NCBI GenBank assembly: GCA_963767925.1
Contig: CAVYGB010000008.1
Span: 1,248,001-1,312,000 of the forward strand
DNA: 64,000 nt
Origin: an uncultured delta proteobacterium
GTDB taxonomy: Bacteria > Myxococcota_A > Polyangia > Fen-1088
Direction of reading: 5' to 3'
Position numbers and translations under genes: made by a program
The notes under the pieces: generated by a model
Database searches by the model: none
What the model was told of the DNA's origin: nothing
What the model saw: only the letters and a program-made list of their open reading frames with translations
Shown here: piece after piece, positions 39,838-63,231 of the stretch
Layout: every line of letters begins with the position of its first letter
Position numbering within the stretch: position 1 is the stretch's first letter

Positions 39838-40515
39838 CTACATCCAACCTCGTTCGGCGAGGCTGACGAATCCCTCGGCGGCGACCACGACGTGATCGAG
39901 GATGGCGATCCCGCAGAGCTCGCCGACCTCCTTGAGGCGGAGGGTGAGCTCGAGATCCTGCCGCGACGGCGAGGGGTCGCCCGAAGGGTGGTTGTGGCAC
40001 AGCAGCGCAGCGGCGGCGGCCGCGCGGATGAGCGGGCGGAACACCTCGCGCGGATGAACCTCGACCCCGGTGAGGGAGCCGCGGGCGATGCAGGCCTCGA
40101 ACAGCAGCCGGTGCCGCACGTCGAGCCCGATGACCCAGAACTCCTCGGAGGGGGCGTGGGCCAGACGGGCCTGGTAGTGGGCCCACACGTCGTGGGCGGT
40201 TCCTAGCCGCTGTCCACGTTCCGGACGGCTGCCGGCCGCCCGGCGGCCCAGCTCGATCGCGGCGCGGATCACCGAGGCCCGGGCCGTCCCGATGCCGGGC
40301 TGCCGCCGCAGCTCGGCCACCGAGGCCTGGGCGAGACCGGCCAGGCCACCGACGGTGGCGATGAGCGCTCCGGCCATGTCCACGGCGTTGAGGCCCGGTC
40401 GCCCGCTGCCGAGCAAGAGCCCAACCAGCTCGGCGTCGGAGAGGCTCTGCGGCCCCTGTGCGCTCAGCCGCTCACGCGGGCGGTCGTCCGGGATCCAGGA
40501 CAGAAGGACGCTCAT
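39838..40515 (-). CDS. radC: RadC/JAB-domain protein
   Basis: DRPRERL...LSDAEL, VHPREVF, HNHPSGDPSPS.QD, ILDHVV. Confidence 0.93.
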   Translation of the reverse strand: MSVLLSWIPDDRPRERLSAQGPQSLSDAELVGLLLGSGRPGLNAVDMAGALIATVGGLAGLAQASVAELRRQPGIGTARASVIRAAIELGRRAAGSRPERGQRLGTAHDVWAHYQARLAHAPSEEFWVIGLDVRHRLLFEACIARGSLTGVEVHPREVFRPLIRAAAAAALLCHNHPSGDPSPSRQDLELTLRLKEVGELCGIAILDHVVVAAEGFVSLAERGWM

Positions 40516-40998
40516 GCGCCTCACTCAGGCATGACGCGTGCCACGGCCAAGGGACAGACAAGGGCAAACGGCAAACGGCACGCCGAACGCCGCAAGCGAG
40601 TAGGGTGTATCGAGTGCAAGCGCACGTACTAGCCAGACGCGTCGGTTGTTTTCGCGCTGAATAGTCTTTGCACCGGCGAAGGTTGTGCTAACTTCGTGGG
40701 AAGCGCTCCCCTCTTTGCGGGTACCTGAATCCCTGCGGAGTGTTTCCTCGGTCGGAATGGTTCGCGACCGAGCCGGATTTCGAGGGTTGGACGGCGCCGC
40801 TAGAGCCGTCGTCTACCCCGACCACGCAAATTTTCCAGGAGTATTTTACTGAGTACCGACACACGCTGGAAAGCGGCGTCGGTCGCCCCTTCCCACGACT
40901 CCGAGCCTGAAGCTGCATCCGACGAGCCCACGCTCGTCATCCACAGGTCGGAGGACACGGAGGTCGCGTCGACGCCAGAGCCGCCCCGCAGGACGGGG

Positions 40999-43185
40999 AT
41001 GGTTGTGCCCGTGATCCGACCGACAGCCGTCGTCGAAGAAGAGGCGCCCCCGTCACCTGCTCTCGCGGCCGCGCTGGTGAAGCTGCGTGAGGTTTTTGGT
41101 TTCCGCCAGCTACGCCCCGGTCAAGCACCCATCATGGAGGCGGTGCTGGCGGGCCAGGACACGCTGGCGGTCCAGCCGACCGGCAGTGGTAAGTCCATGA
41201 CCTACCAGCTGCCGTCGATGGTGCTGCCAGGACCGACGCTGGTCGTCTCACCGCTGCTGGCCCTCATCGAGGACCAGGTCACCAAGCTGCAGAAGCTGGG
41301 TCTTCCCGTCGCACGCATCGACTCGACGCGCACCGCCAAGGAGCGGGCCGCCGATCTGGAAGACGTGCGTGCGGGCAAGATCCGCCTGGTGTTCATCACG
41401 CCGGAGTCGGTGTGCTCACCGACGGTGCAGGAGACCCTCGAGGGGGTGAAGTTCTCCCTCTTCGCGGTCGACGAAGCCCACTGCGTGTCGCAGTGGGGGC
41501 ACGACTTTCGCCCATCGTACCTCGGTCTGCGCCGCGCGGCCGAGGTGCTGGGACGCCCACCCATCCTGGCCCTGACCGCCACCGCCACGCCGGCCGTGGG
41601 CGACGACGTCGTCGCTCAGCTCGGCATGAAGAACCAGAAGGTGGTGCGGGTCTCGTTCCACCGGCAGAACCTCGCCTTCGACGTCCGCAAGGTGGCGGGC
41701 GAGGCGGACAAGCTGCGCGTCCTGGGCAAGCTGATCCAGCGCCTGCGCCGGCCCGGCATCGTCTACTGCGCCACCGTGCGCGCGGTCGACGACCTCTACG
41801 TGGCCCTCCGCCACGGCAAGATTCCGGTCGAGCGGTACAACGGCAAGATGACCACCGACGAGCGCGAGAAGGCCCAGGCGGCCTTCATGGCCTCCGGCCG
41901 CAAGGTGGTCATGATCGCCACCAACGCTTTCGGGCTGGGGATCGACAAGCCGGACATCCGCTACATCATCCACTACCAGATGCCGGGCTCCCCCGAGTCC
42001 TACGTGCAAGAGGCGGGACGGGCCGGGCGGGACGGCAAGCCGGCCCGCTGCGTGCTGCTGTTCCAGCCCGACGACATCGCCATCCAGGAGCACTTCCTCA
42101 AGGAAGCGCACCCCACCAAGACCCAGGCCCGGGCCGTCGCCGAGGGCCTCTATGCCTGGACCGACGAGGGCAAGGAGGTCTCGGTGCGAGACCTCGCGGT
42201 CTCGCTGGCCCTGCCGGAGCGGCGCGTGCGTGTCGTGCTCTCCGTGCTCGAAGGGATGGGCGTCGCCGAAGAGGTGCGGGCCGCGCGCTGGAAAGGCGTC
42301 GAGCCCCGGCCCACCCGAGAGCGGATCGACAAGGCGGCCCAGGTGTTCGAGGTCCGACGGATCACCGATCGGAGACGCCTCGCCGATCTGCTCAAGTACA
42401 TGAACACCCAGCGCTGCCGGGTGGAGATGCTGCGTGAGTATTTCGGCGAGCCCACCGGCGAGAGCTGCGGCCACTGTGACTCCTGTGCCGGCCTTGACAG
42501 CGAGCTGTTCGATCCGGGAGACGACGACCAACGTCACGACCTGCACGCCGCCACCGACTTTCACGCCCGCAAGCGGCGGCGCAAGCGGGGCGAGAAGGTC
42601 GCCATCGTCGACAAGCGGCCGGTCGCGCCGACCCCCGCCCGGCGGGTCCCCGTCCCGATCCCCACCACGCCCATTCCCGAGTTGCCGCCTCCCCTGGCGG
42701 CGATGGTGGTGCTCCCCCCGCCGGAGAGCGAAGCCACCTTCGATCCCCAGGTCTTCCTGGAGAGCCCGGATGCCGGGCAGCCCATGTCGGGGGAGGTCGT
42801 GCTCGACGCCGAGGAGGTCGCCGGTTGGCGGAATCTCCTCGAGCTGGAGCGGCCGCTGTCCGCCGAGGCCCTGACCACGGCGGACGAGGAGTTCCAGACG
42901 GCCTGGGCCGCGGTTCGCGACGCGAACATCCGACCGTACGCCGAGTGGCTGCCGACCAAGCCGGTGGCCTTGCCCGCGCTCGCCAGCCGGGCTCCGATCC
43001 CCAGCCGACCCCGGGGCGGCGGCGGGCCTCCCGCGCCCTCCCCCCCGAAGCGGCAGAACGGGGCCATCGATGCCGCGGATAGCCGGCGCAAGCGCCGGCG
43101 CCGGGGCCGGCGCCGACACGGCGAACCGAACAACGAGCCACGTGGTCCACGGCTGCCGGGCGTCTACAATCCCGGCGGCGACTAA
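40999..43185 (+). CDS. recQ: RecQ-family helicase with long low-complexity C-terminal tail
   Basis: PTGSGKS..YQLP, VDEAHCVSQWGHDFRP, ALTATA, QEAGRAGRDG, CR...YFGE...CGHCDSC. Confidence 0.88.
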   Translation: MVVPVIRPTAVVEEEAPPSPALAAALVKLREVFGFRQLRPGQAPIMEAVLAGQDTLAVQPTGSGKSMTYQLPSMVLPGPTLVVSPLLALIEDQVTKLQKLGLPVARIDSTRTAKERAADLEDVRAGKIRLVFITPESVCSPTVQETLEGVKFSLFAVDEAHCVSQWGHDFRPSYLGLRRAAEVLGRPPILALTATATPAVGDDVVAQLGMKNQKVVRVSFHRQNLAFDVRKVAGEADKLRVLGKLIQRLRRPGIVYCATVRAVDDLYVALRHGKIPVERYNGKMTTDEREKAQAAFMASGRKVVMIATNAFGLGIDKPDIRYIIHYQMPGSPESYVQEAGRAGRDGKPARCVLLFQPDDIAIQEHFLKEAHPTKTQARAVAEGLYAWTDEGKEVSVRDLAVSLALPERRVRVVLSVLEGMGVAEEVRAARWKGVEPRPTRERIDKAAQVFEVRRITDRRRLADLLKYMNTQRCRVEMLREYFGEPTGESCGHCDSCAGLDSELFDPGDDDQRHDLHAATDFHARKRRRKRGEKVAIVDKRPVAPTPARRVPVPIPTTPIPELPPPLAAMVVLPPPESEATFDPQVFLESPDAGQPMSGEVVLDAEEVAGWRNLLELERPLSAEALTTADEEFQTAWAAVRDANIRPYAEWLPTKPVALPALASRAPIPSRPRGGGGPPAPSPPKRQNGAIDAADSRRKRRRRGRRRHGEPNNEPRGPRLPGVYNPGGD

Positions 43186-61839: not shown

Positions 61840-62260
61840 GCGTCTCGCTGGAGCGCGGCTGTAAGCCGGGTTCTGTGCCTGTGCTCGTTGCCGCGCACAG
61901 GTGATGGTCATTCCTCTGGGCCGTCCGTTGCCGGACGGCTCCTGCGACCGACTCGGAGCCGGATCGGCGCGGGTCACGCCGGCGGGTTTCCCCGCGGCCC
62001 CTGCTTGGTCTTGCACCGGGTGGGGTTTGCCATGCCCCTCCCGTCACCGGGAGGGCGGTGCGCTTTTACCGCACCATTTCACCCTTACCAGCCGACCGCG
62101 CTCGCGCGCGGCCGTCCGGCGGTATTTTTTCTGTGGCACTTTCCTTCGAGTCACCCCGACTGGCCGTTAACCAGCACCTTGCCCTATGGAGCCCGGACTT
62201 TCCTCGACGGCGCGCCTTGCGGCGCTCCATCGCGACCACCCACCGTCTCCAGCGAGACGC
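61840..62260 (-). ncRNA. rnpB: RNase P RNA (type A)
   Basis: Minus strand GAGGAAAGTCCGGGCTCC, AAAGTGCCACAGAAA, GGTGAAATGGTGCGGTAAAAGCGCACC, GCAAACCCCACCCGGTGCAAG, ACAGAACCCGGCTTA. Confidence 0.96.
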
Positions 62261-63158: not shown

Positions 63159-63231
63159 TGGGCCCACCTGGATTCGAACCAGGGACCAGGCGGTTATGAG
63201 CCGCCAGCTCTGACCGCTGAGCTATGGGCCC
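63159..63231 (-). tRNA. tRNA-Ile2 (anticodon CAU); CCA not encoded
   Basis: GGGCCCATAGCTCAGCGGTCAGAGCTGGCGGCTCATAACCGCCTGGTCCCTGGTTCGAATCCAGGTGGGCCCA cloverleaf; acceptor stem is ileX-like rather than Met-like. Confidence 0.9.

Follow-up and report, generated by a model that had tools for sequence, protein, structure and literature searches.

The 64,000-nucleotide (nt) stretch of DNA considered here, which we call the window, comes from the genome of an uncultured delta proteobacterium of the Myxococcota (assembly GCA_963767925.1, contig CAVYGB010000008.1, positions 1,248,001 to 1,312,000). This genome is called G000 below, and all window coordinates refer to it. The window contains a recQ gene directed rightward (plus strand), whose open reading frame (ORF) is listed from ATG 40999, and a radC-like gene directed leftward from about 40515, so that by the ORF listing the two genes appear to be about 480 nt apart. 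A preliminary description placed in this gap an RNA of about 205 nt composed of four hairpins closed by a perfect 10-base-pair (bp) stem, and proposed that it is either a new non-coding RNA or a leader acting with the downstream RecQ. Our comparison makes it likely that what lies here is recQ's own control region together with the beginning of its mRNA, and not a separate RNA gene.

The translation of 40849-41598 was used as a protein query for recQ orthologues, and 85 of the 89 genomes of the family match it at E ≤ 1e-40. The 78 loci taken are that of G000, 76 orthologues at E ≤ 1.4e-89 and the locus of genome G062 (2.6e-54); genome G010, whose match starts at base 1 of its contig, and paralogues at E ≥ 1e-58 were left out. 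About 900 nt upstream of each recQ match was fetched. Enough upstream sequence for the analysis of promoter and leader is present at 73 loci, and 72 leaders entered the fold statistics. The 74 loci that contain the pattern GGAG-N5-9-CTGAG(T/C) are referred to as anchored, and 73 of them are in frame and free of stop codons as far as the protein motif described below. The closest relatives are G001 from the same genus as G000, G012 from another genus and the metagenome locus L135; the intergenic DNA matches G001 at 87-88% identity and G012 at 70%, with shorter matches in G017, G062 and G068. The stretch occupied by the described RNA has no second copy in the 9.3-Mb assembly (the best matches after it are only 19-28 nt long, at E ≥ 0.06), and a miniature inverted-repeat element or another mobile repeat was rejected for this reason. 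The features assigned to recQ are the following.

40667..40694, plus strand: recQ promoter, proposed from conservation, with a -35-like TTTGCA (40667-72) and an extended -10 element TGcTAACTT (40686-94)
about 40701-40848, plus strand: predicted untranslated leader of about 148 nt with three hairpins, P1/P1a, P2 and P3
40702..40744, plus strand: P1/P1a stem-loop, the first hairpin of the preliminary description with its outer register revised
40702-09 with 40737-44, plus strand: P1, AGCGCTCC with GGAGTGTT, 8 pairs in the consensus fold of four relatives
40717-21 with 40732-36, plus strand: P1a, GCGGG with CCTGC, in the single-sequence folds of all four
40747..40772, plus strand: P2 hairpin, the second one described, kept in four of four close relatives
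40784..40819, plus strand: P3 hairpin, the third one described, 12 pairs in the consensus fold of four relatives
40831..40841, plus strand: U-rich tract and Shine-Dalgarno (SD) sequence AGGAG (40837-41)
40849..40851, plus strand: CTG, proposed start codon of recQ, 7 nt after the SD
40849..40998, plus strand: putative N-terminal extension of RecQ, 50 codons, with the motif E-P-T-L-V-I at 40924-40941
40849..43185, plus strand: recQ coding sequence as re-read here, 778 amino acids, listed as an ORF from ATG 40999

A putative CTG start codon of recQ

The recQ frame is open 5' of ATG 40999 in G000, G001, G012, G017, G062 and G068, and these six genomes share the peptide LST(D/E)xRW ... EPT(L/I)VI(R/H)xS(E/D). 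The motif P-(T/S)-(L/I/V/M)-(V/I)-(I/V/L) follows the CTG in frame and with no intervening stop codon at all anchored loci but that of G042 (73 of 74). The distance between the CTG and the motif takes 29 distinct values, from 18 to 114 codons, and since all of them are in frame, every insertion or deletion in this fast-evolving tail must have kept the frame. Within the motif, the P and T codons are invariant at their first two positions and the following three codons at their second, and third positions have an entropy of 1.2-1.6 bits; averaged over 13 codons at 73 loci, the entropy is 0.65 at first, 0.70 at second and 1.54 at third positions. In G000 the G+C content of the leader is 0.588 and increases to 0.693 in 40849-40998, where that of third positions (GC3) is 0.82 versus 0.53 in the leader. 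The earlier statement that the region contains no credible ORF is thus wrong from 40849 on, where the recQ frame is open and conserved.

At 74 of the 78 loci the region around the proposed start reads GGAG-N5-9-CTGAG(T/C), with a typical spacing of 6-7 nt and the consensus aGGAGT..AGaCTGAGT.CC. The remaining four are G103, which reads GGAGTGCATC-CTG-ACT, two genomes of genus g13 with AAGGAG-N6-TTG, and G055, which is cut by a contig end. The proposed start codon is therefore CTG in 75 of 78 loci, TTG in two (g13) and unreadable at a contig end in one. In-frame stop codons are found 1-5 codons 5' of the CTG at 25 of the 74 anchored loci. ATG, GTG and TTG are absent from the CTG to the motif at 31 of 73 loci and from the upstream stop codon onward at 19 of 73, and no positionally conserved ATG, GTG or TTG was found among the anchored loci. 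In genus g2 a TTG does precede the CTG by two codons, but it comes only 1-2 nt after the GGAG. Third positions of the CTG and of the next codon, AGT, are invariant across 73 loci, unlike those of the downstream codons, and an A directly follows the start codon at all 77 readable loci. The invariant third positions and the A at +4 argue for a start signal rather than for a Leu-Ser dipeptide. Given an SD 5-9 nt away and a conserved reading frame that begins 5' of any canonical start, the comparison points to CTG 40849 as the start codon of recQ.

Two other readings of this site were rejected. An upstream ORF ending at the TGA that overlaps the site (C-TGA-GT) would have a frame of one codon in 17 of the 74 anchored loci and no start codon in 44 of them. 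As for a programmed frameshift at CTGAGT, no conserved slippery codon precedes it in the consensus, which was read by eye. The second codon (40852-40857 region) is AGT at 73 of 74 loci despite a G+C content of about 70%, with no third-position variation. In the common leader variant (see below), GGAGUUC can pair with GAGUUCC of codons 2-3, and this pairing fails in the g8/g16 variant.

According to a preprint (10.1101/063800), CTG is rarely annotated as a start codon, and in Escherichia coli reporters CUG initiates at 1-2% of AUG with sfGFP, the near-cognate group as a whole giving 0.02-3% of AUG with NanoLuc.

The 50-residue extension of G000 is acidic and rich in Ser and Ala. At L026, L028 and L030 (genus g3) and at L050 and L058 (g13), the tail is expanded to about 110 residues of nearly pure Asp/Glu. 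Shortly after the tail, the recQ frame is broken at L136 (G094), L137 (G096) and L054 (G042), all in assemblies of few contigs, and these breaks could be assembly indels or pseudogenes. Pfam recognizes DEAD (residues 90-248), Helicase_C (288-396) and RecQ_Zn_bind (502-546) in the protein. About 105 residues separate Helicase_C from RecQ_Zn_bind, and there is no Pfam match past residue 546 at E ≤ 0.001, that is, RQC and HRDC were not detected in the last ~230 residues.

The promoter and the leader

The promoter-like element TTTGCA...TGcTAACTT of the preliminary description is present at 40667-40694. The extended -10 element of G000 is TGCTAACTT at 40686-94, and its hexamer is TAACTT (40689-94). 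Alignment with MAFFT and motif extraction place TGnTAnnnT at one aligned position in 72 of 73 loci, and the sole locus that misses it contains N. The -10 box is located 153-245 nt upstream of the start codon, and a TTG-type -35 element is found about 17 nt further upstream; both boxes are kept in G000, G001 and G012 with a spacer of varying length. A scan with consensus promoters did not call the recQ promoter, the hexamers being too weak. The conservation argues for a sigma-70-type extended -10 promoter that would drive recQ, and from the usual distance between a -10 box and the start the transcript is predicted to begin near 40701. The suggestion that the RNA is a leader acting with the downstream RecQ is thus supported by a promoter, a leader and a ribosome-binding site upstream of recQ at 72 of 73 loci.

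The leaders of G000, G001, G012 and L135 constitute one sequence variant and were folded jointly. The joint fold consists of P1, P2 and P3 with 29 pairs, three of which change on both sides, and it adds a CAG/CUG contact of 3 bp that involves the start codon; when the four are folded singly, each gives the same three domains, with P1a nested within P1. Two G-U pairs of P1 in G000 become G-C in G001 and L135, one pair of P2 varies between G-C, G-U and A-U among the four, and in G012 the P3 hairpin is retained with largely different letters. Leaders of the family are about 150-210 nt long, P1 starts 1-2 nt from the predicted 5' end in all leader variants, and the SD is located 8-30 nt past the last leader hairpin.

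Covariation and linkage to recQ

Three sequence variants of the leader can be distinguished: the common one (39 genomes), that of genera g8/g16, and the G000-type one. A covariance model, R1, was built from the 5' domain of the common variant; it also matches the g8/g16 variant at the expected place, and the rebuilt model, R2, matches 21 of 24 such loci. The covariation alignment, A5, contains 49 model matches, of which 48 are leaders and one is a stray match. Across P1, P1a and P2, 97.1% of the cells in A5 are paired, a share that is 88.5% in shuffles. Both partners change in 10 of the 17 pairs and in 71 cells, where 22.8 such cells are expected. None of 500 shuffles reaches the observed pairing or covariation, and controls with slid helices are 35-47% paired. 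In P2, both-side changes affect five of six pairs in the 48 relatives. There are 60 G-U and 6 A-C cells among the 825 cells of the helices, and this excess fits a plus-strand RNA and not a DNA palindrome; the plus strand also folds better than the minus strand in 70 of 72 leaders. An alignment of all 73 leaders made with MAFFT was too gappy for scoring the 3' half. The leaders of G081, G088 and G085 (L079, L090 and L095) contain 3-5 tandem-like GTGGGAA(T/C)G units between P2 and P3, which stretch them to about 215 nt.

Of the 89 family genomes, 47 have an R1 match, always exactly one, and the 5' domain of the leader was detected in 9 of 19 genera. Thirty-eight of the 47 matches lie within 700 nt upstream of recQ on the same strand, and in six more, judged by eye, SD-CTG and the RecQ N-terminus follow; of these, G094 has the SD variant AGGGGG. 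The proposed linkage to recQ is thus borne out in 44 of 47 cases; the other three matches are at contig ends, outside the verified set. With one copy per genome, control specific to this gene, possibly autogenous, is favoured over a metabolite regulon. The position between promoter and start codon, the common strand, the kept linkage and the covarying structure are those of a cis-acting leader.

In 15 genomes from 13 other families of the class, four RecQ matches were found (E 1e-56 to 1e-71); none of them aligns to the extension, and the regions searched at these four loci have no SD-CTG pattern. A scan of a genome collection for the GAGGAGT-type SD-CTG returned 29 matches, 12 of them unrelated and 17 with RecQ context. 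All 17 come from Myxococcales, delta-proteobacterial or 'Proteobacteria' records of metagenome-assembled genomes, and their number is an undercount because the pattern required R before AGGAGT and left the CAGGAGT variant unmatched. A metagenome scan gave three matches, of which only L135 is a relative. Across sequencing runs, the share of sampled words present is at most 0.15. In the literature, judged by titles and abstract openings, no report on a recQ leader or on a recQ CUG start was found.

Rfam 15 gives no gathering-score match in the described RNA and no match at E ≤ 10 within 40450-41100, its only two matches in the window being RNase P and a tRNA elsewhere; at the loci of 20 relatives it gives only two sub-threshold matches, of 21-24 bits against thresholds of 81-82. 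The described RNA thus matches no Rfam family.

The closing stem

The letters and pairings described for the 205-nt RNA are all present. TCGTGGGAAG (40694-40703) is perfectly complementary to CTTCCCACGA (40889-40898), CTCGGTCG (40747-54) pairs with CGACCGAG (40765-72) in the second hairpin, GGGTTGGACGGC pairs with GCCGTCGTCTACCC, TTTCCAG (40832-38) is complementary to CTGGAAA (40866-72), and the G+C content, 0.599, is below the 0.70-0.73 of the flanks. What does not hold is the object closed by the 10-bp stem. The minimum-energy fold of 40694-40898 (205 nt, -88 kcal/mol) contains this stem and the inner hairpins, with a z-score of -2.94 and none of 200 dinucleotide shuffles as good, and the minus strand folds about equally well (z -3.30). 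Across the window there are 228 inverted-repeat pairs whose exact seed is 10 bp or longer and whose spacing is at most 250 nt, so in a window of 70% G+C a perfect 10-bp stem is unremarkable. In alignments read by eye, two internal mismatches without compensation leave the stem 8 of its 10 pairs in G001, and it retains 3 of 10 in both G012 and L135. Hairpins 1-3 match the conserved helices P1/P1a, P2 and P3. The closing stem is not kept, and its two arms belong to different elements.

40694..40703, plus strand: 5' arm, the last base of the -10 element and the spacer to the predicted transcript start; not conserved
40889..40898, plus strand: 3' arm, recQ codons 14-17 (..C CCT TCC CAC GA.)

With transcription starting near 40701, the 5' arm is probably mostly untranscribed. 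The fourth hairpin is composed of the family-wide U-rich tract that precedes the SD (5' arm) and of recQ codons 6-8, CGC TGG AAA (3' arm); the latter is invariant among the four close relatives, and the pairing therefore offers no covariation signal either way. A stand-alone RNA of about 205 nt does not stand, since its stem is unconserved and at chance level and its last 50 nt are the beginning of the recQ coding sequence. The closing stem is noise, and what is real and conserved at the locus is probably an mRNA leader with a mis-called gene start. This is a caution for stem-hunting in DNA of 70% G+C.

The divergent radC-like gene and other features of the window

39838..40515, minus strand: radC-like gene, Pfam RadC and UPF0758_N, likely start ATG 40515-40513

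A sigma-54-type -24/-12 promoter (TGGCAC-N5-TTGC-like, by comparison with the general sigma-54 consensus) faces radC at 40528-40543 on the minus strand, where it reads TGGCACGCGTCATGCC. It is present at 66 of the 73 loci and stands roughly 130-190 nt away from the predicted recQ transcript start. The radC ATG (sometimes GTG) follows the 16-nt motif at a near-constant short spacing, mostly 10-14 nt. The conserved position of the putative promoter argues for ATG 40515 as the radC start rather than for the ORF-listed GTG 40524, and with the start so close behind it the radC mRNA would be leaderless or nearly so.

The window also contains an ordinary bacterial RNase P class A RNA (61845-62251, minus strand, 258 bits) and an ordinary tRNA (63159-63231, minus strand).

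A proposed course of recQ expression and its alternatives

We propose that a sigma-70-type extended -10 promoter (40686-94) would direct transcription from near 40701, and that the first ~148 nt of the mRNA would remain untranslated and form P1/P1a, P2 and P3, followed by the U-rich tract and the AGGAG SD. Translation from CTG 40849 would then add a 50-residue tail with EPT(L/I)VI to the helicase. The near-cognate start would keep RecQ scarce and dependent on start-codon proofreading, the paired 5' end may set or protect the stability of the mRNA, and the helices and sequence blocks of the leader may be a binding or refolding platform for a recQ-specific regulator. The comparison itself shows a promoter, a covarying leader and an SD followed by a reading frame that opens at CTG; the functions given here to the start codon and the leader are inferred.

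Several observations weigh against this proposal. Some canonical start is found between the upstream stop codon and the motif at 54 of 73 loci, never at a conserved place, and since CTG and TTG both encode Leu, the change in g13 alone is no proof of initiation. Both the transcript start and the protein N-terminus are predictions from sequence. R1 and R2 miss the leaders of G000, G001, G012 and L135; R1 recognizes only the P2 core of G000, GGTCG...CGACC, with 2.5 bits, and the equivalence of the G000-type and common leaders would rest on position, promoter, SD-CTG and this core. A5 was fitted to the structure of the model and its sequences are kin, so that its counts lean toward structure. The leaders are not unusually stable (mean z -0.21 over 72 leaders, two of 72 below -2). 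A hint in favour of a transcript comes from RNA-library run X8, which gave one 227-nt contig on 40755-40978 (about 90% identical, with 20 differences and 3 gaps) that runs from the leader across the CTG to 80 nt beyond 40898; but the contig comes from a relative, shows no ends and could reflect DNA carry-over. P3 with a T-run is terminator-like in merely 10 of 72 leaders by a strict and 24 of 72 by a loose definition. There is no sign that the SD is masked: its mean unpaired probability is 0.40 versus 0.34 for the leader, and it is less accessible than the leader in 40 of 72 cases. The tests that were run favour no particular regulatory mechanism.

Candidate mechanisms rejected along the way include an attenuator based on an intrinsic terminator, which is not general in the family and is absent from G000: no terminator-like site was found by a scan of 40400-41100, and in G000 P3 is not terminator-like and is separated from the T-run by 15 nt. 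Autoregulation by RecQ through a G-quadruplex was likewise set aside. With a cut-off taken at about 1.2-1.5, the maximal G4Hunter score is 0.72 in G000, at least 1.2 in 39 of 72 leaders and at least 1.5 in 7 of 72, and the canonical G3x4 pattern is present in 16 of 72; the G-tract signal is thus moderate in about half of the family and absent from G000.

A bolder version of the proposal, which we regard as speculative, would make the leader a regulatory RNA of a new class, dedicated to this role across the whole family, by which initiation at a necessarily weak CUG start is gated. Such a gate might be sensed by a small molecule or a protein, possibly by RecQ itself through its acidic tail or through the action of the helicase on the G-rich leader. 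If this were so, the dosage of RecQ would be set post-transcriptionally and would depend on the condition of the machinery that initiates translation.

Somewhat less probable still is a true switch, that is, a riboswitch-like or protein-controlled attenuator or translational gate with alternative folds. In the common variant, GGGUGC would have two alternative partners, GCACC in P1 and the GCGCCC strand of P3: the blocks CCGCACCGGCG and ACAGGGTGCA, which many relatives share, are complementary to each other, RNAalifold pairs GGGUG with CGCCC of P3, the terminator-like leaders counted above (10 of 72, or 24 of 72) would suit an attenuator, and no Rfam family matches. However, both blocks (GCACC and GGGTGCA of the common variant) are lacking in G000, G001, G012 and L135, there is no terminator in G000, the RNA has one copy per genome and no regulon, fold energies do not differ from those of shuffles, and no compensatory change was seen in the alternative pairs when alignment A2 was read by eye, with no formal count.

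It is improbable that the inverted repeats act as DNA, either as activator sites of the sigma-54-type radC promoter or as operators of recQ. Activator sites of sigma-54 promoters are usually located 80-150 bp upstream, which, given the promoter found on the other strand at 66 of 73 loci some 130-190 nt from the recQ transcript start, would fall within the leader region. Yet the stems covary rather than keep their letters, G-U cells exceed A-C cells by 60 to 6, and the helices reach about 120 nt into the transcribed region.

That recQ starts at ATG 40999 and the upstream conservation is non-coding can be given very little credence. This ATG is the first canonical start in G000, and CTG initiates at merely ~0.02-3% of AUG in the E. 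coli reporters of the preprint cited above; but the upstream EPT(L/I)VI varies at third positions and strictly keeps the frame, GC3 is 0.82 upstream of the ATG, and in many relatives the corresponding position is not a Met.

The least tenable explanation is the one first proposed, a free-standing small RNA of ~205 nt at 40694-40898: its stem is part of the minimum-energy fold of G000 (z -2.94) and it has its own promoter (the extended -10 at 72 of 73 loci), but a leader equally requires one, the stem is broken in three of three relatives and has 228 like repeats in the window, there is no terminator, the 3' quarter is conserved as protein and would place the 3' end within coding sequence, the X8 contig passes 40898 by 80 nt, and an SD 8-30 nt after the last hairpin leaves no room for a separate recQ promoter.

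Comparison with known systems

Near-cognate starts are used by E. coli infC, whose AUU is sensed by IF3, and by plasmid repA, whose CUG start is cited for genetic code table 11. The recQ genes resemble them in keeping a weak start other than AUG, GUG or UUG with a good SD at 6-7 nt. They differ in that here CUG would be the start of a chromosomal helicase gene in 75 of 78 species, with initiation deduced by comparison.

It is known that 5'-terminal stem-loops stabilize bacterial mRNAs, as in the ompA 5' untranslated region (UTR). P1 of recQ also begins 1-2 nt from the predicted 5' end, but the recQ leader is much longer and has two further conserved helices, and the likeness is one of position only. 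Like ribosomal-protein leaders, riboswitches and attenuators, the recQ leader is conserved, covarying, located upstream of one gene and present in a single copy; unlike them, it has no Rfam match, no consistent terminator and no SD-masking helix. The radC RNA motif of Rfam is a structured RNA tied to radC and DNA-repair neighbourhoods. The recQ leader is also a structured RNA adjoining radC and DNA repair, but no Rfam model matches within 40450-41100 at E ≤ 10, and the leader serves recQ, on the opposite strand.

Implications

The re-reading proposed here corrects the gene model of a DNA-repair helicase. The listing by ATG, GTG or TTG drops a conserved tail whose length ranges from 20 to over 110 residues, and the same would be expected of any other start rule confined to these codons. 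The CTG start appears to be kept throughout an uncultured family of Myxococcota, and a CUG start at 75 of 78 loci would be among the clearest comparative cases of a non-canonical chromosomal start maintained by selection, which would make this family a natural system for understanding why a helicase stays on a weak start. The covarying recQ-specific leader, which is absent from Rfam, adds to the candidate regulatory RNAs of the Myxococcota.

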